From the IMG/VR virus record IMGVR_UViG_3300046536_000804: a DNA stretch of 64,000 nucleotides. The stretch is one strand, 5' to 3'. The stretch is from an uncultured virus (IMG/VR IMGVR_UViG_3300046536_000804). Its lineage: Duplodnaviria > Heunggongvirae > Uroviricota > Caudoviricetes. Both the position numbers and the translations under genes were made by a program. The notes beneath the pieces were generated by a model that saw nothing but the letters and a program-made list of their open reading frames with translations, did not search any database and had not been told where the DNA came from. Shown here piece by piece: positions 2,028-63,617 of this stretch (positions within the stretch are counted from its first letter, which is position 1; each line of letters opens with the position of its first letter).

Positions 2028-2096
2028 TCTTTGACCCGAACGAGAGGGTTGGCACGCACGCTTCTCGTCGCACTCTTTCACCCGAGGCGGAGGGTT
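2028..2096 (-). repeat. two tandem copies of the 23-nt motif AACCCT-N5-TCGGGT(G/C)AAAGA
   Basis: copies at 2028-2050 and 2074-2096, intergenic; four more copies elsewhere. Confidence 0.85.
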
Positions 2097-2104
2097 GGCT
2101 CAAC

Positions 2105-3592
2105 TCACTGGACGATATAGAGCTGCTTCGCGGCCCGGGTGAAGGCCGTGTAGATCATCCGCCGACGTTCCTGCGCGTTGCGGTTGTTGTAGATGTCGGG
2201 CGTGGCGATGTAAACGCGTTCGAACGTCGAGCCCTGGGCCTTGTGGACGGTACTCCAGTAGCACGGCTTCAGGTCGGCATACCGGTTGATGAACTGGTAG
2301 TACATCCGCCAGCGGCCGCTCCTGCCTTCCTTCGGCGGCCGTAGAGCATTCTGCCGCATCGCGTTGACGCGTTGGTCGTACACCACATGGTGCTTGGGAT
2401 CGATGACGAACAGCGTGCCGATGTCCGGTTCCAGCGAGTCGGTCAGCAGGTCGACCGTCAGGCGCCAGAAGTCCGCGTAGCCAGAGTCGTCGTTGCCGGT
2501 GTATCGCGTCGCCGTGATCACCTTGCACTCGTCCGAGGTGGCCATCAGGATGTCCTTGTCGTCGTTCGGATCGAAGACCGGACTGTTGGCGATAAGCACT
2601 TGCTCCGGCACGAAGGGCTCGGCGTTGTCGCCGTAGAGGTGCCGGTGGACAAGATCGTTGCCCCAGTCGACAGCCTTGTTGGTCCAGGCCAGAGCTCGCA
2701 CGAAGTTCGAATCCTCTTTGAACCTCGCGCTGCGGAAGTCAGTCAGCATCGAGTTGATCATCTGATCGCGGTTAACAAGGAAGACGCCTTCATCAGCAAC
2801 CTGAGTGTCGCCGGTGATGAATGGGTCCGTGTTCTGCTCCACCGAATCACGGATCTTGTTCACGCACTCCTGAATCGCACTGCCGTGCCGAACGATCTCT
2901 CGCAGAGTGACGCCGCCGGACAGATTGATCGTCGGCGAGCTCACCTCTTTGACGGGCGGCAACTGGGCTGGGTCGCCTACCCATACGATGACGTCGGTCT
3001 GGCAGATGCCGCGATCGCGGGTGTGGGCGTACAAATCACGGCCTACCATGGACGACTCGTCCACGATCAGTACGTCCACTGCGATCGGGTGCTTGCGTGT
3101 GTCCGGCTCGAAGATCTCTTCGCCAGTATCCTCGTTGAGCCGTGGCTTCAGGCCCATGAAGCTGTGGAGGGTGCCGAACCAGACCCGGTTATTTTTGGCC
3201 ACGGGCGAGAGCCGCTTCATGGCATGCACCGCCTTGTTGGTCGGCGCCGCACATCCGACAACGATGTCGGGATTCTTCAGCAGCTCCTTCACCAGCCGGC
3301 CAACGAGCCAGGTCTTGCCTGTTCCAGCAAAACCCCTGAGAGACAGCTCAGATTCGGTTTTCTCCTTCGTGATGCTGAGCAGGAGATAGTTGAACGCCAG
3401 CGTCTGGTCATTCGTCATCTTGTGGACGTACGGTTCCGGTACGACCTGGACGACTGCCGGCGCTGGTGCATTCTCCTCGGGTGGCGGTTCAGGCTCGTCC
3501 CAGGGTACTGAGTAGTGCCTCAGCGGCACCTGAAATATGTCAGGCTTCGCTGCTGGTTTCTGATCTTCAGGCGGGGTTGTCGGTTGCTCCAT
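2105..3592 (-). CDS. SF1B helicase (Dda/RecD-like)
   Basis: GFAGTGKT, AAPTNKA, IVDESSM, VGDPAQLPPV, STVHKAQGSTF, YTAFTRA. Confidence 0.92.
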   Translation of the reverse strand: MEQPTTPPEDQKPAAKPDIFQVPLRHYSVPWDEPEPPPEENAPAPAVVQVVPEPYVHKMTNDQTLAFNYLLLSITKEKTESELSLRGFAGTGKTWLVGRLVKELLKNPDIVVGCAAPTNKAVHAMKRLSPVAKNNRVWFGTLHSFMGLKPRLNEDTGEEIFEPDTRKHPIAVDVLIVDESSMVGRDLYAHTRDRGICQTDVIVWVGDPAQLPPVKEVSSPTINLSGGVTLREIVRHGSAIQECVNKIRDSVEQNTDPFITGDTQVADEGVFLVNRDQMINSMLTDFRSARFKEDSNFVRALAWTNKAVDWGNDLVHRHLYGDNAEPFVPEQVLIANSPVFDPNDDKDILMATSDECKVITATRYTGNDDSGYADFWRLTVDLLTDSLEPDIGTLFVIDPKHHVVYDQRVNAMRQNALRPPKEGRSGRWRMYYQFINRYADLKPCYWSTVHKAQGSTFERVYIATPDIYNNRNAQERRRMIYTAFTRAAKQLYIVQ

Positions 3593-3626
3593 CTGGTCCT
3601 CGGAAAAAGAATGGGCGATCGTTTGC

Positions 3627-4220
3627 TCACTTGAGCGGAAAGTCTTTCCACAGCTTCGACGCCTTCGGTCCGCGCTGTCCTTGATACTTGCCGGTGTACG
3701 GCGTCTGCTCGCCGACCAGCATTTCGTAGGCTATCTGGCAGATTGCTACGCCGGCATAGATACGTATCGGGTGAACCACGGTTAGCTCGAGGGTCCAGTC
3801 CCCCATGAATTTGCAGTCTCCGAACCCGGCGGTGAGATGCACCTGTACACCGAGGCGACCCACCGAGCTTCTTCCTTCGATGACCGGTGCAAAGCAGTGA
3901 GTTTCGGTGTATTCCGTCGTGCAACCAAGGAACAACCTGCCCGGATAGAGGATGATGCCGGTGGGAGGAATCTCTATCTCTTGCACCGGATTGTCTTTCG
4001 CCATATCGAGAATCCGGTCCGGATAGTCTGGAGACGGCACCAGCATGCTGTAGATACCGTAAAAACCGAGATTCACTTGCCCGTGTACATAGACGAGCAA
4101 CTTGTTGCTGAGGTGGAAGTTGTACGAATTTGGATTCAGGCATTTCTCGTCGAACGGGTCGATGACGATGTTGCCCAACTCAACCTGCCGCTTGATCTCC
4201 AGACCCGTCAAAATACTCAT
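3627..4220 (-). CDS. dcd: dCTP deaminase
   Basis: MSILTG...IVIDPF, NPNSY, EGRSSVGRLG, TAGFGD, WTLE, YTGKYQGQ. Confidence 0.92.
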   Translation of the reverse strand: MSILTGLEIKRQVELGNIVIDPFDEKCLNPNSYNFHLSNKLLVYVHGQVNLGFYGIYSMLVPSPDYPDRILDMAKDNPVQEIEIPPTGIILYPGRLFLGCTTEYTETHCFAPVIEGRSSVGRLGVQVHLTAGFGDCKFMGDWTLELTVVHPIRIYAGVAICQIAYEMLVGEQTPYTGKYQGQRGPKASKLWKDFPLK

Positions 4221-4866
4221 ACTGTTCGCTCCTTTGCTGTTGGCGTCGTTTTGCTAACTGAGCATCGACGACGAGGTACTTCCAAAACTTCTCGACGAAC
4301 ATCGACGTCAAGTTGGCCAGCCGCCTCAACTCGTTGACCGCCGAGACGTCGCCCGAATCGTCGTCGGATAGTTTAGCGAACCGGGCGGTCAAGCGGCGTT
4401 TGGCTTCTTCAGGATCGTGCAAGTAACGACTCGAGCAGACGTTGAGGATACGCTTCAAGTCTCGCTTGTTAGCCAGCGCGTTCTCCTCCGGGTTCTTCGA
4501 GAAACCCTTCGGCGAGGCCATCCTCAGGCGATTGATAAAATGCCGACGAGACTTGCGTAAAGCCACAGTATTTTCTGGCATTTCTTTTAGCGCCTTGAGG
4601 TGCGCCTTCTTTTGCGTCTCCGTAGCGATACGGTATCGCTTCGCCTTCGTCCGGATCAGATCGCCGCGGGTCACCAGGCCGAACCGGCCCATCAAGCTGG
4701 ACAGGATCTTGTTGGAGTCGGGATACTGGTCCTCGTAGCCTTCCAGGCCGAACAACTTCTGGTTGGCCGACCAAGCTAGTACCACGATCTCCTCCGCAGT
4801 GAAGTTCTGCTCTCGATACGGATCTGCTTCCAGTAGGCACTTCATAATCAGGTCACAGTTGCTCAC
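4180..4866 (-). CDS. hypothetical protein (possible winged-helix N-terminus)
   Basis: 228 aa ORF coupled to its neighbours; EEIVVLAW...FGLEGY...YPDSNK segment. Confidence 0.55.
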   Translation of the reverse strand: MSNCDLIMKCLLEADPYREQNFTAEEIVVLAWSANQKLFGLEGYEDQYPDSNKILSSLMGRFGLVTRGDLIRTKAKRYRIATETQKKAHLKALKEMPENTVALRKSRRHFINRLRMASPKGFSKNPEENALANKRDLKRILNVCSSRYLHDPEEAKRRLTARFAKLSDDDSGDVSAVNELRRLANLTSMFVEKFWKYLVVDAQLAKRRQQQRSEQYEYFDGSGDQAAG

Positions 4867-5477
4867 GGTGGGTCTCCCTGGACAGCCGTTGCCGAGTCAG
4901 TCTCGGTGAAAGTGTCCGTCAGGCCGGGTAACGTAACACCGGCAACGATATCCATGCTCTTCCGGCAGGTGCCGGCCAGATGATCCGCCAGCCGGTTGAG
5001 GCCTAGCACGCTCCGCGGCACCCACCGCCACTCCAGAAGGAAGCCTCGTTCTGCGACGGCTTCGATCATGGCCCAGTAGTAGTTGCCGGTCTTGCGAGAC
5101 GCCAGGCCGGCGCCTTGTTTCGAGAGAAGCTCACTATCTGTGATGGCGCCGATGCGGACCACACTGCTGGCCCGCAGACGCATCTTGGTGGTGAGCCGCT
5201 CGCGGCCTGGCCCTTCGATGTACCACGACAACGCGTGCACGTACGGAATGAGTTCGGCTAGATAGGACGTGCCGAAGTTCATGGCGCCGTAGAGGTGCTT
5301 ACGCTCTCTGCTGTGGAGATCGAGAAAGGTAGCTGCCCAGCCGCACGACTTGGCCCAGGTGGTGCCTGATCCGTCCGAGACGATCAGCGCGTCGCAGGTG
5401 TCCAGGTGAAGCTCAGCCAGCGTACTGGGCAGCAACGGATCGTTGATGCACAGGTCGAGGTCGATGTGCTTGTTCAC
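4863..5477 (-). CDS. ribonuclease H-like protein
   Basis: IVSDGSG, AEL, ITDSE, WVPRS, NRLADHLA; GTG start overlaps the upstream TGA. Confidence 0.8.
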   Translation of the reverse strand: MNKHIDLDLCINDPLLPSTLAELHLDTCDALIVSDGSGTTWAKSCGWAATFLDLHSRERKHLYGAMNFGTSYLAELIPYVHALSWYIEGPGRERLTTKMRLRASSVVRIGAITDSELLSKQGAGLASRKTGNYYWAMIEAVAERGFLLEWRWVPRSVLGLNRLADHLAGTCRKSMDIVAGVTLPGLTDTFTETDSATAVQGDPP

Positions 5478-5716
5478 GTTTTCTCCTCCGCGATCGGATA
5501 CTTCTTCATGGCGGCAGCAATCGCCTCGCGCAGCGTGCTGCCGACTTCGGGCGTCTTGTTCTGCAGCTCCACCTGAAAGGAGCGGGCCGACCAATCCGGT
5601 CGGCCATTGCGTCGGCCGGCAAGGTAGACCTCGACGTAACCGGTGGCCGGTCGCATCAATTCCTCCAGGTAGTCGATCATCTGCTCGTCTGTCGGGTGCG
5701 TGTCATCGTGTTCCAT
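5474..5716 (-). CDS. hypothetical protein
   Basis: 80 aa ORF with AAGGAAG RBS. Confidence 0.55.
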   Translation of the reverse strand: MEHDDTHPTDEQMIDYLEELMRPATGYVEVYLAGRRNGRPDWSARSFQVELQNKTPEVGSTLREAIAAAMKKYPIAEEKT

Positions 5717-5736
5717 ACCCGTCTTCCTTTCCCAAC

Positions 5737-5759
5737 TCTTTCACCGGAGCGGGACGGTT
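5737..5759 (-). repeat. 23-nt motif copy with compensatory change (AACCGT-N5-TCCGGTGAAAGA)
   Basis: same length and consensus as the other copies; ACCG/CGGT replaces ACCC/GGGT. Confidence 0.75.
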
Positions 5760-5973
5760 AGTCGGCCAAGCCGAAGTTGCTTTCATGGGCTGCGAGAGTT
5801 GTTTCGATCTCGTTGGCCAGCCGTAAGGCATAGTGGCGAATGTCTCCAAGCTGAACTAGCTCGTCTTCCGTCCAGTGTTGTTCCTCTGGAAGCTCTGAAA
5901 GTGCCTCGGTCATAGCTGCACAGTCTTCACGAACAGTTCCGAATGCCGGCTTCGTCGGCTTTTTGTTAGCCAT
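5758..5973 (-). CDS. hypothetical protein
   Basis: 71 aa ORF with AGGAG RBS. Confidence 0.55.
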   Translation of the reverse strand: MANKKPTKPAFGTVREDCAAMTEALSELPEEQHWTEDELVQLGDIRHYALRLANEIETTLAAHESNFGLAD

Positions 5974-7154: not shown

Positions 7155-7699
7155 TATTCCATCCTTAACGCTTTCATTACACGACGAATGTCGCCTCGGG
7201 TCGGGTCGGCCCACATCGAGTTAATACCACTCAGTGGCGCGATGCACAGACTGTAGGTGGCCGTCTTCGTCTTACCGTCTTTCGATGTCGTCACGAAGCG
7301 GGTACGCCACCATAACGGACCTTTCTCGAGCGATACCCAGTCCTGGTCGGCCAGGTTGACGGGTCGACACTCGGTGAAACCGATATGACGCAGCCATGCT
7401 TCGTCAGCGAGTCGCTCGTCGTCATCGTTTTCATCGACGTAAGCGTTGGCGATCCGCACAAGAGCATTGACCACCTTTGTCAATTCTTCGTCATGGAAGA
7501 CGAACGCGGTTCGGTCTTCCTGCTTGGCGGTCCACTCGCGAAATAGCTTGAGCGATTCTCGGAGTTTGTCCGATTTGTTATTCGGTTCTGCAAGAGCAGC
7601 CCGCTCGCTGCACCGCGGACACGGATAGCCGATGCAGTCCGATCCCATGAACCGGGTGTGACAGATAGGACAGCTTTGCTCGACTGGCATCACCATCAC
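7154..7699 (-). CDS. hypothetical protein with N-terminal Zn ribbon
   Basis: CPIC...CPRC. Confidence 0.55.
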   Translation of the reverse strand: MMVMPVEQSCPICHTRFMGSDCIGYPCPRCSERAALAEPNNKSDKLRESLKLFREWTAKQEDRTAFVFHDEELTKVVNALVRIANAYVDENDDDERLADEAWLRHIGFTECRPVNLADQDWVSLEKGPLWWRTRFVTTSKDGKTKTATYSLCIAPLSGINSMWADPTRGDIRRVMKALRME

Positions 7700-9554: not shown

Positions 9555-11603
9555 GTGACGCGAAAGCCAACAACACGCCGCCTTCTTGGGCGACGATTTA
9601 CCGAAGAAGGCGTGGCAGACCTACTGCCATTGGGTAGAATGCTTCCGGTATCACTCTTTTCCGGAGGTTTTGTGCTCGTCAAGAAAATCCATCCGAAGTT
9701 GTTGCTCGCTCGACGCACGCTCGAATCGCTCAGCAACGTCGAAGTCTGCAGGTCGGTAACCGATCTGCAGCGTCTCGAAGCGATCCAAGCTCTTGTCGAG
9801 CACGGCAATTTGCAGACTTTCGTACCGCTCTTGCCTGCCTGCTTCAACCTGAACGGCTACCCATTTACTCTGGACGACCACTTTGCTCTCGAACCGGTCT
9901 TCAAGAGATCGATGCCGGAAGTCTTGACGATCAAGGGGGCTCGCCAGTTCGGCAAGTCGACGTTTCAAGCGGCGCGATCGCTGCTCGTCTCGCTAACGAT
10001 GCCTTACTTCTCCACCCTCTTCGTCTTTCCTCTCTTCGAACAAGTTAACCGGTTTTCAACACAGTATGTTGGCAAATTCCTTGAGGAATCGCCGATCAAA
10101 AGCGCCTGGATGGGACCGCGATCCAGCAATAGCGTTCTCACCAAGGCGTTCAGCAATTTCTCCAAGATGACCTTCAGCTTCGCCGGCCTCTCGGCCGAGC
10201 GTATCCGGTCGGTCAGTGCGAACAGCATCATCTTCGACGAGGCCCAGAATCTGGACCGTCGGCAGATGCCGGTCATCTCGGAGGTTATGTCGCATTCGCT
10301 GGTTTACGATCGACGCACCCAGCGTCGAGTCCACGCGAAGTTCACCGTCATCACGGGCACCCCGAAGACGCTCGACAACTTCCTCGAGGTGAAGTGGGCT
10401 GAGTCGAGTATGGCAGAGTGGGTGATCCCATGCGTATGCGGCAAGGAGAATTACCCGGCCAGGGGTATGGACCTGGAGAAGATGATCGGCCCTATGTATC
10501 TGGAGTCCGACAAACGCGAGATCGGCGAGGTGCGAGACAACAAGCGACCCGGCACCATCTGCGCCAAGTGCGGCCGCAGCATCGACCCTCGTATCGGCTT
10601 CTGGCATCACCGCCACCCCGATCGTATCGCTACGAAGCCAGGTCTGCACGTCCCGCAATGCATCATCCCGGTTCACTATGCCCAGCCCAAAGGCTGGGCC
10701 ACCCTGCTGGGCAAGCAGGCCGGCAGCGGCAACTACACGACCGCCAAGCTGTACAACGAGGTTCACGGCGAGTCGTTTGATCTAGGAGCTAAATTGCTTA
10801 CCGAAACCGATCTGAAAGCGGCAGCCGTATTGCCGTGGCATAACAACCCGATGAGTTTTGCGGACCTGGCTCGCAGCATCCGCAGCAAATACGTGTGTCT
10901 GTTCATGGGAGTCGACTGGGGCGGCGGCGGCGAGAGCGAGGTCAGCTTCACCACGGCAGCCGTTCTTGGCATGCTCCCAGACGGTCGCATCGACATCGTC
11001 TACGGTCGCCGACTGTTGCTGTCGCACGATAACCGAGGCGAGAACGAGATCTTGCTCAACATCTACGACACGTTCGGCTGCAGCTACTTCTGTCACGACT
11101 ACAACGGTGCCGGCGCCCTGATCGAGCAGTACCTGGTGCAGAGCGGTCTGCCGATCAACCAGGTGGTGCCGTTCGTTTACTACCGCTCCGCGGCGAAGGA
11201 TATCGTGGTATTCCACCAGGCGGCCGAAGAACATCACCGCAGTTATTATCACCTGGACAAGGCTCGTGCATTGGAACTGGTCTGCGAAATGATCAAGTTG
11301 AAGCAGATTCGGTCTTTCAAGTACGACCACATCTCCGAGGATGAACGAGGTCTGTTGATCGACTTCACCAGCTTGGCTCAAGCAAAAATCGAAACCGCCC
11401 GGGCAGGCGAGGTGCACACAGTGCAACGCGTTGGCTCCTTCCCGGACGATTTCGCACATTCGGTTACGTTTGCTGCTTGCGGTATCTGGCACGCCAACGG
11501 GATATGGCCGGACTTGCCTATGCTGGCGAAGCTTATGATAACGAAGGAGCAGGAGGAAGCCTTGAATCCGTCTAGCAGTCCGTGGGATGTCCAATCGACA
11601 TAG
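9555..11603 (+). CDS. terminase large subunit (GpA-like)
   Basis: KGARQFGKST Walker A, IIFDEAQ Walker B, GTPKT, Zn-finger insert, nuclease motifs MGVDWGGG and PDDFAHS; true start may be the ATG at 9639. Confidence 0.85.
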   Translation: MTRKPTTRRLLGRRFTEEGVADLLPLGRMLPVSLFSGGFVLVKKIHPKLLLARRTLESLSNVEVCRSVTDLQRLEAIQALVEHGNLQTFVPLLPACFNLNGYPFTLDDHFALEPVFKRSMPEVLTIKGARQFGKSTFQAARSLLVSLTMPYFSTLFVFPLFEQVNRFSTQYVGKFLEESPIKSAWMGPRSSNSVLTKAFSNFSKMTFSFAGLSAERIRSVSANSIIFDEAQNLDRRQMPVISEVMSHSLVYDRRTQRRVHAKFTVITGTPKTLDNFLEVKWAESSMAEWVIPCVCGKENYPARGMDLEKMIGPMYLESDKREIGEVRDNKRPGTICAKCGRSIDPRIGFWHHRHPDRIATKPGLHVPQCIIPVHYAQPKGWATLLGKQAGSGNYTTAKLYNEVHGESFDLGAKLLTETDLKAAAVLPWHNNPMSFADLARSIRSKYVCLFMGVDWGGGGESEVSFTTAAVLGMLPDGRIDIVYGRRLLLSHDNRGENEILLNIYDTFGCSYFCHDYNGAGALIEQYLVQSGLPINQVVPFVYYRSAAKDIVVFHQAAEEHHRSYYHLDKARALELVCEMIKLKQIRSFKYDHISEDERGLLIDFTSLAQAKIETARAGEVHTVQRVGSFPDDFAHSVTFAACGIWHANGIWPDLPMLAKLMITKEQEEALNPSSSPWDVQST

Positions 11604-15837: not shown

Positions 15838-16125
15838 TTACAGGATCTTCCTCAGATACTTTACCAACTGTTCGCGGGTCTTGACATCGGGAATTTGCTT
15901 CAGGCAGTGACTGCAATGATAGTCGCGAAGTCGGTGAGCGGGAAAGTCACCGACATGCACTTCAAGAATCTCACCCATCTTCAAATCCCTGTTGCCGTCA
16001 AGACCGATGATCCTAACTTCAACGTCACAATCGCTTGACGTCTCCACCAGGACAGGGTTCTGGCAGTGCGGACACTGCCAGGATTTGGCAACACCTTCTT
16101 CTTCAGTGCGATCGCCCTTTTTCAA
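15838..16125 (-). CDS. Zn-ribbon protein
   Basis: CPHC...CSHC. Confidence 0.55.
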   Translation of the reverse strand: MKKGDRTEEEGVAKSWQCPHCQNPVLVETSSDCDVEVRIIGLDGNRDLKMGEILEVHVGDFPAHRLRDYHCSHCLKQIPDVKTREQLVKYLRKIL

Positions 16126-16429
16126 GTGGCGCTCCTTCCAGAAACTGTTGAAGCCAATCTACTTCGGCGGCCAGAGCCTCATCGCGTCGGCGTGCCGTCG
16201 CGATGATCTGTTCTGGTCCACCTAGTAGCGGCGAAACATCGACCGACCAACCAGACGCTGAGGGCTCGCAATGGCTTGCCCTCGACGTCTTCAGGTTGGG
16301 AAAGGCGGGCTGTAGCACCTCGTGGAGGCTGTCGTCGAAAACGAAGACGATGTCGCCGTTCGCCTCTACGATGATGCTGTGTTCTTCATCACAGTCGTTC
16401 GGTTTGTCGAAGGGTGGTTGATTCTTCAA
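16103..16429 (-). CDS. conserved hypothetical protein of the DUF1257/DUF2997 neighbourhood
   Basis: RASHCEP...WSVDVSP...RDEALAAEVDWL. Confidence 0.6.
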   Translation of the reverse strand: MKNQPPFDKPNDCDEEHSIIVEANGDIVFVFDDSLHEVLQPAFPNLKTSRASHCEPSASGWSVDVSPLLGGPEQIIATARRRDEALAAEVDWLQQFLEGAPLEKGRSH

Positions 16430-16586
16430 CTCGAAACTCCTGTTTCTTGACGTCGCCGACGGTCTCGAAGAGATCCGTATACGGCTGACTCAGCTCGGAA
16501 CACGATGGTCCGATTACATTGAACACCTCGACCGACACCTGCCCTCGAGGATCGAGGGTGATGTGGATTTCTTTCTCCGGATTCAC
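16389..16586 (-). CDS. DUF2997-like protein
   Basis: IHITLDPRGQVSVEV...GPSCSELS. Confidence 0.7.
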   Translation of the reverse strand: MNPEKEIHITLDPRGQVSVEVFNVIGPSCSELSQPYTDLFETVGDVKKQEFRVEESTTLRQTERL

Positions 16587-16622
16587 GCGATCTCCTTTGT
16601 CAGACGAGCCGACTTGCTGGTA

Positions 16623-16645
16623 TCCTTGACCCGACCCAGAGGGTT
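16623..16645 (-). repeat. 23-nt motif copy
   Basis: AACCCTCTGGGTCGGGTCAAGGA, overlapping the TAA of the upstream gene. Confidence 0.75.
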
Positions 16646-17174
16646 AAAGTTCGTCGGTTGGGTGAACGCCGACCACGACCTTGGTTCGACCGCCTCCAAG
16701 GTCGTCGATCCGTTTGACGTAGTGGCCAGGCTGCTTGGCGACCTGCGCAACGACCTTGCTTTGCGAGATCATCTGCATCAGCTTGCCGTAGTCTTTACCG
16801 CCAACCTTGGCGAGAATCTGTTCGACGCCGATACCGTACTCCCACTGGTCGAACACCAGCCCGAAGGTTCCGTCCTTCATCTTCACCAGTCCGATCTCAT
16901 ACGGCCTGGAATCCGGTTTCGCTGAGAAGGTTTCCTCCTCATGAGGCGTGTACGGCAGGCGAATCACGTGATCGCATTTGCCGTAATCCTCAGTCCTTAT
17001 CTCACGATAAGCGGCATTGCCGCCGTTGTAGTCGCCTGCCCATTCACCGTACCACTGGTGCGTGGTGACCCCACGGCAGAACACCAGGCCGAGTGCTTTG
17101 CAGGCATCCTCGACCGCCTGCAGATCGCCAGGAGTATCGTTGATCCTGGCCTTGCTGAGAGTGACGTGACTCAT
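16644..17174 (-). CDS. DUF1257-like protein
   Basis: MSHVT...IND...ACKALGL...YEIGL...LVFDQW. Confidence 0.7.
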   Translation of the reverse strand: MSHVTLSKARINDTPGDLQAVEDACKALGLVFCRGVTTHQWYGEWAGDYNGGNAAYREIRTEDYGKCDHVIRLPYTPHEEETFSAKPDSRPYEIGLVKMKDGTFGLVFDQWEYGIGVEQILAKVGGKDYGKLMQMISQSKVVAQVAKQPGHYVKRIDDLGGGRTKVVVGVHPTDEL

Positions 17175-17213
17175 TGGACTGACCCTCGAGTATTAACAGT
17201 TAAAACGGCAAAT

Positions 17214-17957
17214 TCATTCCATCTTCGCGATGGCTGCACTAAGTGCGGACTCGATGTTCGGCATTTCACTGATCTTGTAGCGTAGGTTGACGAGGTCTTC
17301 GTCAGACACCGGCACTCTTGCATAAATGTCCGGGACGTGAGTGATCAAATGCAGCTTACGAGCTGCCTCGCGTATCATCTCCATACCAATGGCACGATCG
17401 GTCTGCGAGACAGCCGGTGTCGCATCCTCGGCAGGTTCCTCTGCATCGGTAGCCGTACACAGCAGCTCGGCGTGCAACTGTCGAAGGCTGATGATACGAC
17501 CTTCCATGCGACTGACACCTGCCAACGAGGTGGTTGTTTGATCGAAATTGACAGGCTGATCCAGAGAACCTGCCAATTCTTCGAGATCTGACGTCAGCAG
17601 CTCGATGAGCGTGTTCAGCCGATAGAGCTTGCTCTTCTGGACCGGCGGTTCGTCCGTCTCTTTGTCGTCGGGATGGAACTGCGGTTGATCGGCGTAAGCC
17701 GTGGCGAGCCGATTCTCGAGTCCGTCCAGAACCTTCTGCACTCGAGCCATCCTGAACGTTGAGACTGAATTAAACCACTCGGTCACAGCAGCCGCACCCT
17801 TCTTGTCGATCGTAGCAATAACGACCATACGACGGTCGAACTGCTCGGCGATCAGAGAAGCGATAGCGTCGGGAATCGGCGCCAGGATCTCGGTGTCGTT
17901 GTCATCGTCGAGTTCAGAGGTGACTATTTCGTCAGCGAGAACGTGAGGCGTGGTCAT
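17214..17957 (-). CDS. hypothetical protein
   Basis: 247 aa ORF, ATGA-coupled. Confidence 0.6.
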   Translation of the reverse strand: MTTPHVLADEIVTSELDDDNDTEILAPIPDAIASLIAEQFDRRMVVIATIDKKGAAAVTEWFNSVSTFRMARVQKVLDGLENRLATAYADQPQFHPDDKETDEPPVQKSKLYRLNTLIELLTSDLEELAGSLDQPVNFDQTTTSLAGVSRMEGRIISLRQLHAELLCTATDAEEPAEDATPAVSQTDRAIGMEMIREAARKLHLITHVPDIYARVPVSDEDLVNLRYKISEMPNIESALSAAIAKME

Positions 17958-18601
17958 GGTTGTTCCTTGGCTTCAGTTGATGCAGGCTCTGCCTGCTCGG
18001 GTTTTACTTCATTCTCCTCTGTCGGCAGCACGCTGCCGGTGTGGCCGGTGATGTGCCACTCTTGGGATTCCCACACTGGAAAGATTGGGTGACTGAAGAC
18101 CTCCTGAAGCATCCGATGGGCAGCCTGGATGGTCTTGGCCTGAATGACGATGTCATAGGGCAGACTGCTGTGGTAGAAGGTCTCGTGGCTGGCAAACCAG
18201 AAGATCGGCTTCTCTGGCATCGGCTCGATAACCGGGTATCCCCAGTTCGCATCGTTCATAAAGGCCTTCACCACCTTGCCGTTCAACGTCGGCGCCGACA
18301 CGACGGTTCTCATCCCGACTGTGTCTTCCGCCATGCACGAACGGATGATGACGGTTCCAGCCCAGACAGGACGACAATTCGGCTGGAACGCAAGCTCGAC
18401 GGGAAGCACCAACCAACAACCCGCCGGCCGCCTGACGAAGATCATTGGTGCGCCATCGCGCAGCGTCTGTGCAACAATGCATTTTAAGCCGGCAGCGATG
18501 GGATAGGTATCTCGGAACGTAGTGATATACGGAACGTCTCCAATCTTCCGCAAGATGCCCAACTCGAAACCCAACACTTCCGAGTCGTACGGACTACTCA
18601 T
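17954..18601 (-). CDS. hypothetical protein
   Basis: 215 aa ORF, ATGA-coupled. Confidence 0.6.
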   Translation of the reverse strand: MSSPYDSEVLGFELGILRKIGDVPYITTFRDTYPIAAGLKCIVAQTLRDGAPMIFVRRPAGCWLVLPVELAFQPNCRPVWAGTVIIRSCMAEDTVGMRTVVSAPTLNGKVVKAFMNDANWGYPVIEPMPEKPIFWFASHETFYHSSLPYDIVIQAKTIQAAHRMLQEVFSHPIFPVWESQEWHITGHTGSVLPTEENEVKPEQAEPASTEAKEQP

Positions 18602-18792
18602 TTCAGTCCTTTCTGTTCAGCGATCCAGTCGGTGATCTCCATCTCGAGATCGAACATGTCTTCGCTGTAGTTTTCGGGCTCCTTGATCTGCGACTTCGGC
18701 ATCCATTCCGTACCTTCCTCCAGGTGGAGCTTGAAGGCTTTATCGGTTTCCTTCTCGATCAGCAACACGTGAATTTCAAACCACGAGTCCAT
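18598..18792 (-). CDS. small phage protein
   Basis: ETDKA...WMPKSQI...ITDWIA motif. Confidence 0.65.
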   Translation of the reverse strand: MDSWFEIHVLLIEKETDKAFKLHLEEGTEWMPKSQIKEPENYSEDMFDLEMEITDWIAEQKGLK

Positions 18793-18816
18793 GACGATCT
18801 CCCACTCGAGACGAGA

Positions 18817-19755
18817 TCAGTCGACGCTGATCTTTCGTCGGTACCTGCCACCAGCATCTTTCTTGGCCTCTTTGGTAAGGGCCGTGATTGCCTGGCTGAT
18901 CGAACTCACCACCCCGGCGCCGCCTTGACGCACATCGGTGTTGAAGTTGCTGATGAGCTCCTCAGAATCCATCTCCTGCTCGACCTTTTTCAACGCGTTA
19001 AGCGTTGCTTCGTCGGCCAGGAAGGAGAAGTCACGCAGCATCTGAAACTGCTGCCGGATCAGGGTGAAACTGCCTTCGCGGAACATTTGCCCCTTGGCGA
19101 TCTTCTCTGCGATTTTACCGGCTTCTTCCTCCAGGGTCTCCGACACACCGCGTACGATGCTCTCCGCCACCTCCTCGGCCAGGGCACGACCGGCTTCATT
19201 GAGGAAGGTGAACGGCAAGATGACGAACCTAAGGCAAATCGCTGCCCTGAGTTGCGTCGGGCTGGGAATACGGGCCAGCATGAGGTCCCAGGTCGATTTG
19301 CTGGCGATCTGCTGCCGCCGGCTCTCAAGGATTTCAGGAAAGGCGTCACAAAAGGATTCCCTCAATGGGATCAGCTCCTCGTTCATGATGCGATTCACCT
19401 CTGCGGCGATCGTCTCCTTGCGGTGCCCGGCGATCAGGTAACAGCCGTTCGGTAAGGACAGCTCTTTCACCTCCGACTTCGGCGGTGAGGCCGCCTGCAC
19501 GAGTTTCTCCGCCTTGGTGTGGAGCTGGGTGAATTTCTTGCCCCAGTCCGGCGGTATCAGCCTGAGCGTTGGCGCCGACAGCAGTTCCTCTTCGATAAGC
19601 TTGCCGTCGATGGTGGTGGTTGAGTTGGGTACTCTGCGGTTGCCAGGAAGTCCTTGCATCCTGAGCATGACGACCGCGACGCTCGCCTCCAGCACCTGGG
19701 CGAGCCTGTCTTTGCTTGCAGACGCCTGGGCGGCGTCTTGAGTTGTCTCAGCCAT
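18817..19755 (-). CDS. DUF3150-like protein
   Basis: LSAPTLRLIPP...GCYLI...F...P..LRA..CLRF pattern; AGGAG RBS before the ATG at 19755. Confidence 0.55.
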   Translation of the reverse strand: MAETTQDAAQASASKDRLAQVLEASVAVVMLRMQGLPGNRRVPNSTTTIDGKLIEEELLSAPTLRLIPPDWGKKFTQLHTKAEKLVQAASPPKSEVKELSLPNGCYLIAGHRKETIAAEVNRIMNEELIPLRESFCDAFPEILESRRQQIASKSTWDLMLARIPSPTQLRAAICLRFVILPFTFLNEAGRALAEEVAESIVRGVSETLEEEAGKIAEKIAKGQMFREGSFTLIRQQFQMLRDFSFLADEATLNALKKVEQEMDSEELISNFNTDVRQGGAGVVSSISQAITALTKEAKKDAGGRYRRKISVD

Positions 19756-20203
19756 TGGTCTCCTTGGGGTCAAAGTCGCCGATCTTGATTCGGTCGAGTA
19801 AATCATTGAAGTTCGGCTCATCAACTGTCACCTGAATGCTGACGAGATCGTCCAGAAGCAGATTGCTGGCGATTTCGAACGCCTTCCTGAAGGCGTCATC
19901 AAGCATCCAGCCCTCTCGTAACGAGATGCATTTACCAGCCTCATCGGTGTCGACGCAGATGTACGAGTGAGAAGGGCCGATGGTGTACAGGCGGGAATTG
20001 ACAGGCTTGTCGACTATCGTCGCAAGTATCATGCACGGATTGTTTATTCCGGTGAAGGCGACTAGACAAAGCTTTGAGCCGAATCGATTTAACAAGGCGT
20101 TCATCGCAGTGATGTAGATCATTCGAAGAGAATCAGCTTCGATTGGGATATTATCGCCGTCGTCGAACCCTTTCTTGTCGATCATGTTTTCAAAGTGGTA
20201 CAT
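19748..20203 (-). CDS. hypothetical protein
   Basis: 151 aa ORF with GAGGA RBS. Confidence 0.55.
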   Translation of the reverse strand: MYHFENMIDKKGFDDGDNIPIEADSLRMIYITAMNALLNRFGSKLCLVAFTGINNPCMILATIVDKPVNSRLYTIGPSHSYICVDTDEAGKCISLREGWMLDDAFRKAFEIASNLLLDDLVSIQVTVDEPNFNDLLDRIKIGDFDPKETNG

Positions 20204-20210
20204 GTTCCTC

Positions 20211-22073
20211 CTAGTTGCGGTTGGGATCCAGGCGGATCATCTTTTTGCTGGGCGCAACCGTCTGAACCTTGTCACGTTTCTCCCGGTTCGACACGCTGAC
20301 CGCGACGCCGTCCAGATCTCCCATGGCGGTCACTTCCGCCTTGTTGAGCTTCGAGACCGGAGTCACCACCGAACGAGCTTCCTTGAAGTCGTCCAGGGTT
20401 GGCTCCTTGATACCGCTACGAGCAGCGGACAGGGTGATTGCCTCGTTGACCATCTCAGCCAGTTCGGCGCCAACCAGGTCAGCAGTGATCTTGTCAGCAG
20501 CCACGTCCTTGATGTTGGCCGGTACGACAGCTCCCTGTTCGGCCAGCTTCAGACGCAAGATGACCTCCCGGTCAATCGCGTCCGGGATCGGCGTATAGAA
20601 GAACCGGCTGATTCGGCCGGCACGCAACGATTCGATCGGACCTGTGACGCGGTTCATCGTGAGCACGAGGAAGGCCCGACGAGACGGATCGGAGGCGAAA
20701 TCCAGAATCAGGCTGAGCATGCCCGAGCTGGTATTGCCATCGGAGGCACCACCGATGATGCCGCCGGTTTGCTTGTCGAACTCGTCCATCAACACCACGA
20801 CGTCACCCATCGCTCGAATGGTCTCAATCGCATCGGCTGTGTTGCTTTCCGAGGCGCCGACAAAGCTGTCCTTCAGTGTGCCGAGGTTCAGCACACACAG
20901 AGGCACACCGATCCATCGAGCGAACAGCTTCGCACTTATGGTTTTTCCCGTGCCGGGCGGACCAGCGATGGCGAAGCCGCTTGGCGAAACGATTCCCAGT
21001 GCCTTAGCTCTCGCGCTTCGGCAGAACTTGATCCGCTCGGCCAGCTCCTTGACGTTCTCGTAGCCACCCAGGTCACCCAGGCACGACAGCTCAGGATCCG
21101 AAGGATCGATGATCCGCAGGCCCTGACCTGCGGACAACTGCTTCGACCGCATATTGCGGATGGTGGGGATCAGTTGCTTCTTCTTGCCGTCGGGAGCCAG
21201 GATCTCTGGGACGAAGCCGTTGAAGCTGCTCACGCAGTAGGCAAGAGTTCGTTCGATGGTTATCGTGTCGAGACCCTTCAACGAACTGATCAACTCCGAA
21301 CGAATCTCGGGCGGGCAGCCTCGTTTGTCCGGGTTGGAGATGTTCTGCTGGGCGATCGTTACCTCGTTGTCGATCTCCGCTTCACCAGGCAAAGGCAGAT
21401 CAAGACGTACGAGGCAGTGGCGGATGTCCTCATGCACCCGCATGTACGGCTGGAGGAAGATCAGGTGTCGCGACATTTCGCCATTGGCGATCGTGTTCTG
21501 TTCACAACAGTTTCGCAAGGCTCGCCGCCACTCCGGCTTCTCGTGATTGAGATGCGTGTGGCAGTCCTTGAAGACGATGAAGCACTTGTGTTTCATCTGA
21601 TCGGAAACTTCACGGCCGCGTACTCGAAACAGAGCATTACGCAAACTGTCCGCCGTCAGCTTGGTGTCGCTGAAGCCGTCGACCATGTCCCAGGTGATCG
21701 TCGTCGCGCCGAACTGATTGAGGACGTTCAACAGTTCCTTTTGCAAAAGTTCGAGCTCTTTGCCGTCACCGTCGTCACGGCTGATCAGTCGGTTGAGACC
21801 AGCCAAAGCGTCAATGAGATAAGACGTCTGGAAGTTACCAGTCTTTTCGACCTGATCACAGATCTTCGTATCGATACCGCCGCGGAGCATCGCAGTGACG
21901 ATCGTGCCTCGGAAAACCTCGACATCGTCGAGGTTGTTTATCTTCTTGTCGGTCATCCTCCAGCCGGCGACACGCACGGCATCGACCACGCGAGACTCTT
22001 CGCGAGAATTCACATAGAACGCAGCCTGACCTGACCTGGCGTATCGCACCAGTTCTTCGATGAAAGATTCCAC
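20211..22073 (-). CDS. AAA+ ATPase (Ycf46/CDC48-like, degenerate N-terminal AAA domain)
   Basis: GPPGTGKT, VVLMDEFDK, TMN sensor, LRAGR arginine finger, LVGAEL; GTG start after AAGGGG. Confidence 0.88.
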   Translation of the reverse strand: MESFIEELVRYARSGQAAFYVNSREESRVVDAVRVAGWRMTDKKINNLDDVEVFRGTIVTAMLRGGIDTKICDQVEKTGNFQTSYLIDALAGLNRLISRDDGDGKELELLQKELLNVLNQFGATTITWDMVDGFSDTKLTADSLRNALFRVRGREVSDQMKHKCFIVFKDCHTHLNHEKPEWRRALRNCCEQNTIANGEMSRHLIFLQPYMRVHEDIRHCLVRLDLPLPGEAEIDNEVTIAQQNISNPDKRGCPPEIRSELISSLKGLDTITIERTLAYCVSSFNGFVPEILAPDGKKKQLIPTIRNMRSKQLSAGQGLRIIDPSDPELSCLGDLGGYENVKELAERIKFCRSARAKALGIVSPSGFAIAGPPGTGKTISAKLFARWIGVPLCVLNLGTLKDSFVGASESNTADAIETIRAMGDVVVLMDEFDKQTGGIIGGASDGNTSSGMLSLILDFASDPSRRAFLVLTMNRVTGPIESLRAGRISRFFYTPIPDAIDREVILRLKLAEQGAVVPANIKDVAADKITADLVGAELAEMVNEAITLSAARSGIKEPTLDDFKEARSVVTPVSKLNKAEVTAMGDLDGVAVSVSNREKRDKVQTVAPSKKMIRLDPNRN

Positions 22074-22089
22074 AAGCAATCCCCTTACA

Positions 22090-22123
22090 GAGAAGAACCC
22101 GACCGGCACGATGCCGGCCGGGT
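22090..22123 (-). terminator. hairpin between the E1 and AAA genes
   Basis: ACCCGGCCGGCA-TCG-TGCCGGTCGGGT then TCTTCTC. Confidence 0.45.
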
Positions 22124-22135
22124 GGACAGAGATGA

Positions 22136-22873
22136 TCACTCGACGTCGGTCGTCATCTCTGAAGATAACAAATTCAACAACTGGTCCGGCGCCACCGCCA
22201 TATGCCGCAGCCACCGGCTGAACTGGTGCAACATCAGCCCGGCGCTGATCGATGCCGTATAGATGGTGGCCCGCGCCGTGCAGGACCCGGAATACGCGTC
22301 GATGCTGCCGAACAGCGTCGTCTCGTAATACTTGTCGGTGTACGGCTTGTCCACGGCCAGGATGCGCAGCGTCTCGGACGCCATGCGGCCGTCCACGAAG
22401 AAACTGATCTGCTGCTTGACGGCGTCCCAGATCATTTTCCTGGTCTCGATGCTGTCGACGCAGCAGAAGACAGCCAACCGCAAGTCGCCGAGGGCTGACG
22501 CTATGTTCGTAAGATCTCGCATCGACGCGCGGGTGAACTTCTCCGGAAACTCGGTGACTTCACAGTCCGGGTTGATACGGCCACAGAGATCAGCAGTGGC
22601 CTTGACCTTGGGCCAGTTGATATCGTCTGGCCAATAGCCTTGCGGCGCCAGGTTCTCGATTGCGACGATGTCGTGATCGAAAAGGACGATACGTTTGGCC
22701 CCGAGGGCCGCGAGCTGCAAGGCGGTCTGCCGTCCGCCAGCTCCAACGCCGATAACGATCGGCAAGCACTTCTCGAGATTCTCCGGCGGCACCAGGCTGC
22801 GTTGACGAGAGTCACGCTGCAGGGGCGCCTCCTTGACTTCCGCACCAGGCGGATCAAGCGTTGCTTCGAGCAT
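22136..22873 (-). CDS. E1-like activating enzyme (ThiF/MoeB family)
   Basis: RDSRQ, IGVGAGG, FDHDIV..ENL..Q, CVDSIETR, DGRM; candidate catalytic Cys in GSCTAR. Confidence 0.9.
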   Translation of the reverse strand: MLEATLDPPGAEVKEAPLQRDSRQRSLVPPENLEKCLPIVIGVGAGGRQTALQLAALGAKRIVLFDHDIVAIENLAPQGYWPDDINWPKVKATADLCGRINPDCEVTEFPEKFTRASMRDLTNIASALGDLRLAVFCCVDSIETRKMIWDAVKQQISFFVDGRMASETLRILAVDKPYTDKYYETTLFGSIDAYSGSCTARATIYTASISAGLMLHQFSRWLRHMAVAPDQLLNLLSSEMTTDVE

Positions 22874-22901
22874 GGGAATCCTTTGTAAAAGGGGTATGTA
22901 G

Positions 22902-27443: not shown

Positions 27444-27492
27444 GGTCTGCTCCTGTTGATCTGGGATACCTAAGAAATTCGTCACGCCGCCG

Positions 27493-62288: not shown

Positions 62289-62311
62289 ATCCTTACCCCA
62301 GCAAGTGTACG

Positions 62312-62349
62312 AAAAAAGCCCTAAGTTGCACTTGCACAACTTAGAGCTT
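62312..62349 (-). terminator. intrinsic terminator closing the tRNA array
   Basis: AAGCTCTAAGTTG-N8-CAACTTAGGGCTT followed by TTTT. Confidence 0.7.
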
Positions 62350-62446
62350 CGGCAAGTTCAGAATCTGAACTAGCTATGCTGCACCACGATATACTGACAC
62401 ACTTTCGAGGCTAATTTAGCACAAATGGACCCAATGACTTTTGTCG

Positions 62447-62469
62447 TCTTTGACCCGACGCAAAGGGTT
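62447..62469 (-). repeat. 23-nt motif copy just 3' of the tRNA array
   Basis: AACCCTTTGCGTCGGGTCAAAGA. Confidence 0.8.
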
Positions 62470-62476
62470 AGTGAAT

Positions 62477-62549
62477 CGCCCTCGCTCGGATTCGAACCGA
62501 GGTCTCAACCGTTTAGAGCGGTAGTGCGATGCCGCTTCGCCACGAGGGC
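62477..62549 (-). tRNA. tRNA with CUA anticodon (amber suppressor type)
   Basis: acceptor GCCCTCG/CGAGGGC, D arm GCGA/TCGC, ACCG-CT CTA AA-CGGT, T arm CTCGG-TTCGAAT-CCGAG; no encoded CCA. Confidence 0.85.
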
Positions 62550-63140
62550 TTTATTCCTTCCGCAGAATGTTTCTGTCTGCGAGTTGCAGTTTGGGCACAG
62601 CAACCTCAGGTTGCTTACGAGACCATTGCGACGATTTCCGTCTATGTGATCCAAGATAAGTACAAGCGGTTTGCCGAACCAAGACGGTGAATTACCGCAT
62701 TCGTAGCAGTTGTTGTTCAGGATGCCTTCGGCGATCAGTCTTCGTTTTCTACCGCCACCGATGGGGTGGTCACTGTCTGCAACTAACACCTCCGCCCACG
62801 GCGTACGTTGTCTGATTCCTGACGTGCCGTGACTTAACCCTTTCCAGTGGCTGGTATCAAGACCGTGTCTCGCCACTTCGCGTTTCACCCAGCTATAGGC
62901 AGAGCCTACAATAGCTCGATTCATCTTGCGAAGGACTGCTGATATGCTCAAGCTCTCTGCAACAGCCTGTTTGAACGCGTCAACGTCGTATCCTTGCCGT
63001 CGGTTACTTACTAGATGGTCAAGGCGGTGTTTCTTGATCCACCAGCGAACAGTTGATCGCGAACAATCAAAATAATCGGCGATCTCCTGTAGCGATTCGT
63101 CGTGGATCGTCAAACGCTGCTCGAGAATATTTTTGTCCAT
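62505..63140 (-). CDS. HNH homing endonuclease with N-terminal HTH
   Basis: LQEIADYFDCSRSTVRWW; CYECG...LDHIDGN..N..SNLRLLCPNC; 3' end overlaps tRNA-CUA. Confidence 0.88.
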   Translation of the reverse strand: MDKNILEQRLTIHDESLQEIADYFDCSRSTVRWWIKKHRLDHLVSNRRQGYDVDAFKQAVAESLSISAVLRKMNRAIVGSAYSWVKREVARHGLDTSHWKGLSHGTSGIRQRTPWAEVLVADSDHPIGGGRKRRLIAEGILNNNCYECGNSPSWFGKPLVLILDHIDGNRRNGLVSNLRLLCPNCNSQTETFCGRNKALVAKRHRTTALNG

Positions 63141-63147
63141 ACATACT

Positions 63148-63176
63148 ATCGTAGCACAACAGGAGTGGCGGAGCAA
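63148..63176 (-). promoter_or_regulatory. sigma70-like promoter for a probably leaderless HNH mRNA
   Basis: TTGCTC-N17-TACGAT with extended TG; ATG follows after a 7-nt spacer. Confidence 0.55.
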
Positions 63177-63207
63177 TTCGCTGCTCTGCCAATTGAGCTA
63201 CGGCCGC
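63174..63207 (-). pseudogene. tRNA 5' half truncated in the anticodon loop
   Basis: GCGGCCG TA GCTC AATTGGCA GAGC A GCGAA TT G, then the HNH cassette; no matching 3' half seen. Confidence 0.7.
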
Positions 63208-63213
63208 TTACAT

Positions 63214-63287
63214 TGACCTCGCCTGGAGTCGAACCAGGATTACGACCGTTTAACGGGTCGGGAATTAGCCAATTATTCGACGAGGTC
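63214..63287 (-). tRNA. tRNA with 8-nt anticodon loop, probable UUA (ochre) anticodon
   Basis: GACCTCG/CGAGGTC, GAAT/ATTC, CGACC-CGTTAAAC-GGTCG, CCTGG-TTCGACT-CCAGG. Confidence 0.7.
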
Positions 63288-63292
63288 TAAAG

Positions 63293-63464
63293 AGCCGGTG
63301 GCAAGATTCGAACTTGCGTCCAACGGTTTATTAAACCGCTGCTCGAGCAGTGTCAGCTCTGGCGTTCTTCACCGGTTGTACTTCCCGGCTATCACCGCTT
63401 TCGCTTGGCTGCCAGATCATCGCAACGTTAACGCCCGCGACGATCCCCACTGAGCTACACCGGC
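63293..63464 (-). ncRNA. tRNA-like RNA with 107-nt D-loop and AAU anticodon
   Basis: perfect GCCGGTG/CACCGGC, GCTC/GAGC, GCGGT-TTAATAA-ACCGT, GCAAG-TTCGAAT-CTTGC. Confidence 0.75.
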
Positions 63465-63468
63465 ATAG

Positions 63469-63587
63469 CGGCGGTGGCTGGATTCGAACCAACACCTCCC
63501 AGCAAGCTGGGTGCTCACCACCCCGGAAGGGGAGTGCCGATCTTTGCCGGCGAACCGGTTTCGAAGGACACATTGAGCTACACCGCC
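63469..63587 (-). ncRNA. tRNA-like RNA with 58-nt D-loop and CUUG tetraloop instead of an anticodon loop
   Basis: perfect GGCGGTG/CACCGCC, GCTC/GAGC, CCCAG-CTTG-CTGGG, GTTGG-TTCGAAT-CCAGC. Confidence 0.75.
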
Positions 63588-63594
63588 GTTGTCC

Positions 63595-63617
63595 TCTTTC
63601 ACCCGAGGCCAAGGGTT
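63595..63617 (-). repeat. 23-nt motif copy just 5' of the tRNA array
   Basis: AACCCTTGGCCTCGGGTGAAAGA. Confidence 0.8.

Follow-up and report, generated by a model that had tools for sequence, protein, structure and literature searches.

Phages organize expression through small repeated signals between their genes, of which few kinds are understood: the promoters and RNase III sites of T7, nut sites and stoperators. The RNase III sites of T7, R0.3 to R18.5, are irregular duplexes of ~50–60 nt, about two helical turns, that are read by host RNase III; cleavage there yields separate transcript units with protective hairpins at their 3′ ends. In cluster A mycobacteriophages, stoperators are co-oriented and lie close to stop codons, and the promoters of the N4 virion RNA polymerase are hairpins with a 3-nt loop that need this giant enzyme. 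The gene 32 pseudoknot is an autoregulatory translational operator, present in one copy at one translation start. Cluster M mycobacteriophages carry short repeats, CR1–CR4, between many non-structural genes, some with stem-loops; inserted genes bring their own repeat copy and the phages carry large sets of transfer RNAs (tRNAs) (PMC7953290). Here we compare with these systems an element of ~30 nt that recurs six times on the minus strand of a 64-kb stretch of DNA (the window; IMG/VR record IMGVR_UViG_3300046536_000804), which is part of a larger uncultivated phage genome and comes from a rhizosphere metagenome.

Results

Six co-oriented copies between genes

The initial annotation of this DNA had reported six same-strand copies of a 23-nt intergenic motif, read as an RNA hairpin with a purine tail. 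Scanning with the minus-strand pattern AACCCT-N5-TCGGGT(G/C)AA(A/G)GA (23 nt, at most two mismatches) recovered exactly those six sites in the window, every one on the minus strand, at 2028–2050 (c2028), 2074–2096 (c2074), 5737–5759 (c5737), 16623–16645 (c16623), 62447–62469 (c62447) and 63595–63617 (c63595), and none in 100 dinucleotide shuffles. Five copies match without a mismatch and c5737 has two, bearing ACCG...CGGT where the others have ACCC...GGGT, a swap already noticed and confirmed in an alignment of the copies (A1). Conservation in A1 is limited to the motif and one or two preceding pyrimidines. In a weight-matrix scan of both strands, the six copies scored 35.9–42.6 and the rest of the window at most 12, with no weak copies. 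The copies are a real, discrete class, far beyond chance, with six of six on the minus strand and six of six between genes. They are 46 nt to 46 kb apart. Neither scan found a copy within 16646–62446, and the late genes between 16.6 and 62.4 kb are without any; the initial annotation had spotted none in the virion module.

All copies are in gene sense and lie in gaps, 0–8 nt past a stop codon or tRNA end or 23 nt past another copy, and same-strand genes or RNAs follow each at 7–74 nt. By our own open reading frame (ORF) calls, which used length and codon bias and no gene finder and assign 69 ORFs to the minus strand and 3 to the plus strand, the six copies occupy 5 of the 32 inter-feature gaps of at least 20 nt. 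Copy c2074 begins 8 nt past the TGA of a helicase ORF (2105–3592), and c2028 follows c2074 after 23 nt. Two copies start within a TAA stop, as annotated, motif positions 1–2 being the AA of ORFs 5758–5973 (c5737, with the next ATG 20 nt beyond motif position 23) and 16644–17174 (c16623, upstream of a DUF2997 ORF at 16389–16586). The annotated 7-nt spacings around the tRNA array were also found, from c63595 to the first tRNA-like RNA (63469–63587) and from the last tRNA (62477–62549) to c62447. Copy c63595 begins 7 nt past the TGA of a Pth2-like ORF, and its stem ends 1 nt short of the tRNA-like RNA (63587).

In three of five loci, the next signal downstream is a terminator or a convergent gene end. 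The terminator that had been placed directly after c62447 is not there: an intrinsic terminator on the minus strand (62312–62350), with a ~15-bp stem (~62318–62350) and the run UUUUUU (62312–62317), lies ~96 nt downstream. Terminators also follow the methyltransferase unit downstream of c2028 (gap 948–1092). The ~96 nt between c62447 and the strong terminator (62351–62446, minus strand) are non-coding and fold into further hairpins; either a small RNA or, as at lambda PR′–tR′, a short leader that is terminated before the late genes could be encoded here. Because the homologues of the genes flanking c16623 overlap in the relative G003, with no spacer and no element between them, the element has been gained, or lost, at this gene junction.

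A stem that varies and stays complementary

Each copy can be drawn as a conserved AACCC, a U, a stem of 6–8 bp and an 8-nt loop, GGGUSAAR (GGGU-S-AA-R). The stem is formed by the variable 5-nt centre plus TC, paired with GA and the 6–7 bases downstream of the 23-mer. Positions 6–13 pair with 22–30 in c2028 (2021–2050; AACCC, loop GGGUCAAA) and c62447 (62440–62469), both with A26 unpaired, and in c5737 (5730–5759; ACCG/CGGU), with U25 unpaired. In c63595 (63588–63617), 6–13 pair with 22–29 around a G9/A26 mismatch; in c16623 (16616–16645; loop GGGUCAAG), 7–13 pair with 22–29, A25 being unpaired; and in c2074 (2067–2096; loop GGGUGAAA), 8–13 pair with 22–28, U25 being unpaired. All six elements lie on the minus strand. 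No two copies share a stem sequence, yet each stem stays complementary, and in all six a single 3′-arm base is unpaired after 3–4 pairs, as a bulge or, in c63595, a 1×1 mismatch. The earlier hairpin reading thus holds in so far as this is a base-paired, gene-sense element, but the 5-nt centre is the 5′ arm of the stem and not its loop, and what had been called a purine tail is the 3′ half of the loop with the first two stem bases.

Several comparisons bear on this stem. Unconstrained minimum-energy folding gave GGGUSAAR as a loop in four of six copies. When 5′ and 3′ halves were swapped among copies, cognate halves had a mean folding energy of −9.1 kcal/mol versus −5.6 for non-cognate halves, and the true assignment was the best of all 720 permutations. 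With AACCC held single-stranded and the 3′ partner compared with 2000 random 10-mers from the window, P values for single copies ranged from 0.009 to 0.14 (Fisher's combined P = 6e-5). In an ungapped alignment (A6), 61 of 66 stem cells are complementary and double changes occur in 5 of 11 pairs; none of 500 shuffles reached this covariation score, and partners slid out of register pair in just 30–52% of cells.

A second helix between flank and loop

The ACCC just 5′ of the stem is complementary to the GGGU of the loop, positions 2–5 with 14–17. This is the pairing that the initial annotation had taken for the stem of the hairpin; it survives as a second helix, here called helix 1, that joins flank and loop (the variable stem being helix 2). 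All 24 of 24 helix-1 cells are paired, and the one double change, from CG to GC in c5737, keeps the pairing. By a rough count, two changes would strike the same one of four pairs and be complementary by chance about once in 100. The order of arms (helix-1 5′ arm, U, helix-2 5′ arm, helix-1 3′ arm, a 4-nt A-rich loop, helix-2 3′ arm) suggests either an H-type pseudoknot or two competing or alternative folds. A one-base linker, a helix 2 of ~7 bp and a short last loop make a feasible pseudoknot geometry, as in gene 32 of T2 and T4. As the arms vary and stay complementary while loop, flank and bulge are constant, the pattern suggests a folded nucleic acid read by a factor rather than half-sites or promoter hexamers, and the element is probably a folded nucleic-acid element of the minus strand.

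Repeats of like layout in related phages

With the large terminase (TerL) as seed, scans of genomic, metagenomic and viral collections yielded ~170 loci on contigs of ~1 kb to 235 kb; the IMG/VR contigs with a full 10-kb flank around TerL measure 57–226 kb. The window motif was in none of the ~170 loci, and looser scans gave scattered matches with 2–3 mismatches. The four loci with the nearest TerL (L056, L058, L096 and L109; 45–50% identical) had no repeated intergenic motif within 10 kb of it. Another repeat, of the approximate form ..AAC..GCC-U-[stem]-GGCUUCGUA-[stem]-GAC, was found in members of the same terminase clade whose TerL is 41–43% identical to the window's: L069 (11 copies), L078 (11), L079 (17; the same as L145) and G001 (28). 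Nearly all copies lie on the strand opposite TerL, like those of the window.

These repeats have a helix 1 of 3 bp, a 1-nt linker and a helix 2 of 6–7 bp, and the helix-1 3′ arm opens the loop; taken together, both elements show a helix 1 of 3–4 bp, a 1-nt U linker and a helix 2 of 6–7 bp. Among 34 distinct copies from L069, L078 and L079, 87.6% of cells are paired, no shuffle of 500 matched the score, and double changes affect four helix-2 pairs and one helix-1 pair. In the G001 array (alignment A5; 28 copies), 99.6% of cells are paired, helix 1 changes from GC to AU in two copies, and, read in the sense given here, G-U cells number 18 versus 0 A-C cells. Helix 2 differs between phages (CACAGA/UCUGUG versus ACARUG/CAUUGU), with further double changes within phages, and helix 1 changes from GCC:GGC to ACC:GGU in several copies. 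Across both types, a difference in the first helix-1 base is matched at the last base of the partner arm (GCC:GGC, CCC:GGG, CCG:CGG).

The two elements are thus alike in layout and spacing, in the AAC start, the U linker and the strand opposite TerL, and in a helix-1 5′ arm (GCC/ACC; CCC/CCG in the window) that covaries with the start of the loop (GGC/GGU; GGG/CGG in the window). They differ in that the relatives' repeat has its own loop sequence, of 9 nt versus 8 nt, and no bulge, forms arrays, and has stems that are mostly constant within each phage. The copies are dispersed in L069 and arrayed, as 10–28 units, in long non-coding stretches of L078, L079 and G001. The G001 array (L215 8783–10374; G001:C1 ~74.8–76.4 kb) fills 1.6 kb of non-coding DNA between same-strand genes with 28 tandem units, ~48–103 nt from start to start with variable spacers, and the exact loop 9-mer was found nowhere else in the 156-kb record. 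Copy number differs within the close pair L078 and L079 (11 versus 17).

Other repeats were seen in these collections. Inside the L079 array, eight tandem 11-nt units (ACGCACGTAAC; 7540–7640, minus strand) have an iteron-like look. In G003, whose genome is 56% GC, an AT-rich 15-mer that is nearly palindromic (ACWTAATTTTTAAGT-like) gave 38 matches when up to three mismatches were allowed, a count that spans two strands and takes two palindromic places twice; it lies mostly on one strand, with some copies inside genes, and is absent from the window. L183 (448–1171) holds a CRISPR-like array of 11 repeats of ~36 nt with a period of 72–73 nt and unique spacers, and L187 and L189 hold CRISPR-like repeats with a 61–62-nt period at two loci (5405–5602 and 20760–20893). 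L192 (~2077–2871), L207, L212 and L213 contain long stretches built of 6-nt GGTCTN-type units, and a TTGGAG-N9-ATGATA word is repeated there. Such GGY-rich runs may loosely resemble the VIPR vrRNA repeats (bioRxiv 10.64898/2026.04.26.720920), with a different unit length; GGY/NN repeats of the VIPR type were not found in the window.

Searches for known families

No Rfam match at E values up to 10 overlapped any copy, and the relatives' repeat is also absent from Rfam. In viral contigs, the exact motif had two single matches, both without the downstream complement; in genome contigs it had 42 single matches, where a rough estimate expects ~70 by chance. The sole contig with two matches, a record of 1.9 kb, has one sequence present at both ends. 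Judged by its sequence, the element fits no catalogued family.

Several known classes were considered and set aside. No U run follows any of the six stems, and a terminator scan listed none of them as intrinsic terminators. The stem differs in each copy and the spacing runs from 46 nt to 46 kb, unlike a CRISPR repeat or a solitary repeat unit. A T7-type RNase III site is by definition ~20 bp of mostly double-stranded RNA, and these stems have merely 6–8 bp. Stimulation of stop-codon read-through or frameshifting does not suit the spacing to the stop (−2 to +8 nt), and what precedes two of the copies is a tRNA or a further copy rather than an ORF. A ribozyme, riboswitch, CsrA site or T-loop mimic had no Rfam match and showed no fit to consensus by eye.

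The tRNA array and the genes of the window

The array bounded by c63595 and c62447, all on the minus strand, opens with the tRNA-like RNA, 119 nt with a long insert, and ends with a tRNA with a CUA (amber) anticodon, called Pyl by ARAGORN. Between them lie a partial tRNA match (63301–63348) and an unusual member with an 8-base anticodon loop (ttaa; 63214–63287). An HNH endonuclease ORF with an N-terminal helix-turn-helix (62505–63176, minus strand) directly follows a stretch that resembles a 5′ half-tRNA (~63177–63213), is placed among tRNAs and could be an intron or homing insertion. The Pth2-like peptidyl-tRNA hydrolase ORF (63625–63981, minus strand), beside the CUA-anticodon tRNA, has an in-frame TAG at codon 4 and no other start codon near; with TAG read through, it gives a weak arch_pth2 match (24 bits, E = 3e-5). 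An in-frame TAA two codons past its TGA overlaps the motif. TAG is the stop of 9 of 69 called ORFs, which argues against global recoding, so any suppression would be local or partial.

The majority of window ORFs had no family match. Those recognized include a GpA-type TerL (9555–11603, plus strand), the helicase next to c2074, which is Dda-like (minus strand), a dCTP deaminase, a Dam-type methyltransferase, and baseplate and tail-fibre genes. Within the baseplate and tail block lies a divergent, group-3-like ORF of the sigma-70 family (38567–39352, minus strand), with matches to a PHROG sigma factor (E = 5e-7), Sigma70_r3 (22.9 bits) and SigB/F/G (26 bits); all 49 of its PDB sequence matches are sigma factors (best E = 0.006), and it is kept in G003 at 43% identity. 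A good sigma-70-type promoter look-alike, TTGTGC-16 nt-TATAAT, lies in a gap among late-region genes (27486–27522, minus strand), so host-type promoters seem to be used too. On the minus strand at 16103–24272, DUF2997, a small adjoining ORF, DUF3150, an AAA ATPase, a ThiF-family E1-like protein and a JAB-domain protein together look like a phage-borne ubiquitin-like conjugation set.

Megablast found no close relatives among GenBank phage records, where the best TerL match by tblastn was 29% identical, and neither the helicase alone nor TerL alone had matches in the viral contig collection. The nearest complete relative is G003 (IMG/VR, 194 kb), whose TerL is 47% identical. Since the 31 of 72 window ORFs in common with G003 keep their order and span just ~42 kb of its genome, the window is probably a conserved core together with the margins of a larger accessory region. 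At these presumed margins lie five of the six motif copies.

Discussion

The interpretation we favour, tentatively and at a little short of even confidence, is that the element is a transcribed, RNA-folded recognition site of ~30 nt that acts as transcript punctuation at gene boundaries. It would be transcribed along with the minus-strand genes and fold in the RNA, where its constant loop, flank and bulge may be recognized by a trans-acting factor, such as a phage or host RNA-binding protein or nuclease. This factor would act on long polycistronic transcripts at gene boundaries, by endonucleolytic processing, by providing a protective end structure for neighbouring segments, or both, much as T7 RNase III sites do. 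The outcome would be separate RNAs for the PTH2 mRNA, the tRNA block and the downstream units. That the function is specifically processing or stabilization is possible, if on balance somewhat unlikely.

Several observations weigh against this interpretation. When phages repeat a co-oriented motif between genes, it is usually a promoter. The window shows one part of the genome, and the case is built on six sequences, from which the structure was both derived and tested. The stems are short. Folded singly, the copies are no more stable than their shuffled versions (z from −1.2 to +0.4), and for that reason complementarity was tested directly. Helix 1 is supported in the window by a single double change, and U6 is itself paired in four of six copies, which leaves no linker, so helix 1 and the lower part of helix 2 may exclude each other. 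Among the relatives, A-C cells (16) outnumber G-U cells (9) in alignment A3, and the folding strand is ambiguous there. Orientation in the relatives is also not strictly tied to nearby genes: in L069, a copy is flanked by two plus-strand genes and several stand where gene ends converge, and in L079 a single copy is on the opposite strand. These observations leave room for readings at the DNA level. With 36 GGCUUCGUA-loop copies as input, a covariance model found none of the six window copies, with filters off and E values up to 10, a weak test in that the same model scores plainly related G001 copies at just 8.5–11.7 bits. We therefore claim shared architecture between the two elements and not homology.

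The main rival, on prior grounds and because of the sigma-like gene, is a promoter, in which host RNA polymerase with a phage sigma-like protein, or a polymerase encoded outside the window, would recognize the 23-mer as DNA, possibly extruded as a DNA hairpin, as for the N4 virion RNA polymerase, with transcription starting near the 3′ end of the motif. This is unlikely, although it is what such phage motifs usually mean, the sigma-70-family ORF is conserved in G003, the 7–74 nt to the following genes or RNAs would be workable at every copy, the terminators or convergent ends at three of five loci are in accord with it, and the genome extends past the window, where an RNA polymerase gene could lie. 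AACCCT and TCGGGT are 5 bp apart (13 bp from centre to centre) rather than the 16–19 bp of sigma-70 promoters, a misfit with −35/−10 geometry; a promoter scan listed none of the six copies; TAnnnT and an AT-rich melting region are missing and the centre is GC-rich. Nor does the 23-bp block resemble a T7-like promoter, which is conserved throughout and AT-rich from −4 to −1, since its centre varies; within the window, RNA polymerase families matched none of 73 ORFs, and a DxDGD-type motif was in none of 72 translated ORFs. No copy precedes the late genes at 16.6–62.4 kb, where the sigma gene sits, and in the relatives the 48–126-nt spacing of the G001 array leaves no room for genes, while several L069 copies stand at convergent gene ends. 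As double-stranded DNA, the sigma promoter or operator that the initial annotation gave as its alternative leaves the covariation between the centre and the downstream bases unexplained, though a sigma-like gene is present. The same holds for a double-stranded site for a phage regulator, whether it serves as an operator, blocks elongation like a stoperator or acts as one of several dispersed centromere-like sites: ACCC-N8-GGGT is a dyad spaced by about one helical turn, and co-oriented copies hug stop codons like cluster A stoperators, but the arms that vary are those kept complementary, unlike protein half-sites, the symmetric C-to-G and G-to-C changes in c5737 are a signature of pairing and not of protein contact, and no repressor was identified among the window ORFs, which together make such a site very improbable.

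Covariation would equally be expected of a single-stranded DNA hairpin, serving as a priming or assembly signal on the lagging-strand template or as a recombination mark at cassette boundaries. The strict strand bias (six of six), the iteron-like repeats beside the L079 array, the relatives' orientation, which is not always tied to neighbouring genes, and the appearance of c16623 as an insertion at a gene junction, comparable to the repeats described for cluster M mycobacteriophages (PMC7953290), are compatible with this. A second, pseudoknot-forming helix is typical of RNA and not of DNA signals, however, stems of 6–8 bp are short for cruciform extrusion, and no recombinase, primase or HUH nuclease was recognized among the window ORFs, so we consider it improbable. 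Within RNA-based functions, nut-like antitermination, in which the hairpin would recruit an N-like factor to elongating polymerase so that downstream terminators are read through, comes next after processing or stabilization; it is possible, at a low probability, because strong terminators follow c62447, with a long late-gene block beyond them, and follow the methyltransferase unit (gap 948–1092), and the element is a gene-sense RNA hairpin with a constant purine-rich loop behind a constant single-stranded word. On the features tested, the membership in the nut/boxB class first suggested did not hold up: a boxA word (CGCUCUUA-like) adjoins no copy of the element (12 loose matches in the whole window versus 28 expected by chance), boxB has a 5-bp stem and a 5-nt GNRA-like loop rather than a bulged stem of 6–8 bp and an 8-nt loop, the copies include a tandem pair and both sides of the tRNA array with none at a recognizable promoter, and the relatives' arrays are a misfit. 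No match to an N-like protein family came up in a scan of 73 window ORFs, which did not extend to small ORFs or to DNA beyond the window. An RNA decoy or sponge for an RNA-binding host protein of defence or decay, which it would neutralize as ToxI repeats neutralize ToxN, would make the relatives' arrays its high-dose form. Arrays of 10–28 pseudoknot units in non-coding stretches and the differing copy number of L078 (11) and L079 (17) suit it, but the window copies are single or paired only and inside mRNAs, the array units have variable spacers, unlike type III antitoxins, and the covariance model gives no kinship between window motif and array units; we regard a decoy as no less improbable than a regulator site on double-stranded DNA.

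Returning to RNA punctuation, the window element and the GGCUUCGUA-loop repeats might form a single superfamily, so far undescribed, of small RNA pseudoknots that bind protein, a doubtful extension of our interpretation. A clade of soil and water phages would then use single units as punctuation at gene boundaries and arrays of 10–28 units as a dedicated non-coding RNA (a sponge, a decoy or a processed small-RNA array), with a partner protein that co-evolves with the loop. The element is compact and backed by covariation, and its layout recurs with other sequences across a large clade of uncultivated phages. Its partner, if found, would yield a new RNA–protein recognition module and would offer a handle on transcript organization in phages without a cultured host.

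Compared with known systems, the element resembles the RNase III sites of T7 in that related, co-oriented stem-loops are repeated in the gaps of long phage transcripts; it differs in its 6–8-bp stem, its constant 8-nt loop and its loop-to-flank helix. With lambda nutL and nutR it shares a short gene-sense RNA hairpin, a constant purine-rich loop and a constant single-stranded word upstream, but it has no boxA, an 8-nt loop, a longer, variable and bulged stem, and six copies. The N4 hairpin promoters are likewise short, phage-specific hairpins in several copies with constant loop bases, whereas the window holds no giant polymerase gene (its longest ORF has 1025 aa). The CR1–CR4 repeats of cluster M are unrelated in sequence (PMC7953290). 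The gene 32 pseudoknot of T2 and T4 comes close in form, with its helix 1, 1-nt linker, helix 2 of ~7 bp and A-rich last loop, and the window element stands apart from it in being repeated, at gene ends, 20–74 nt from the next start.

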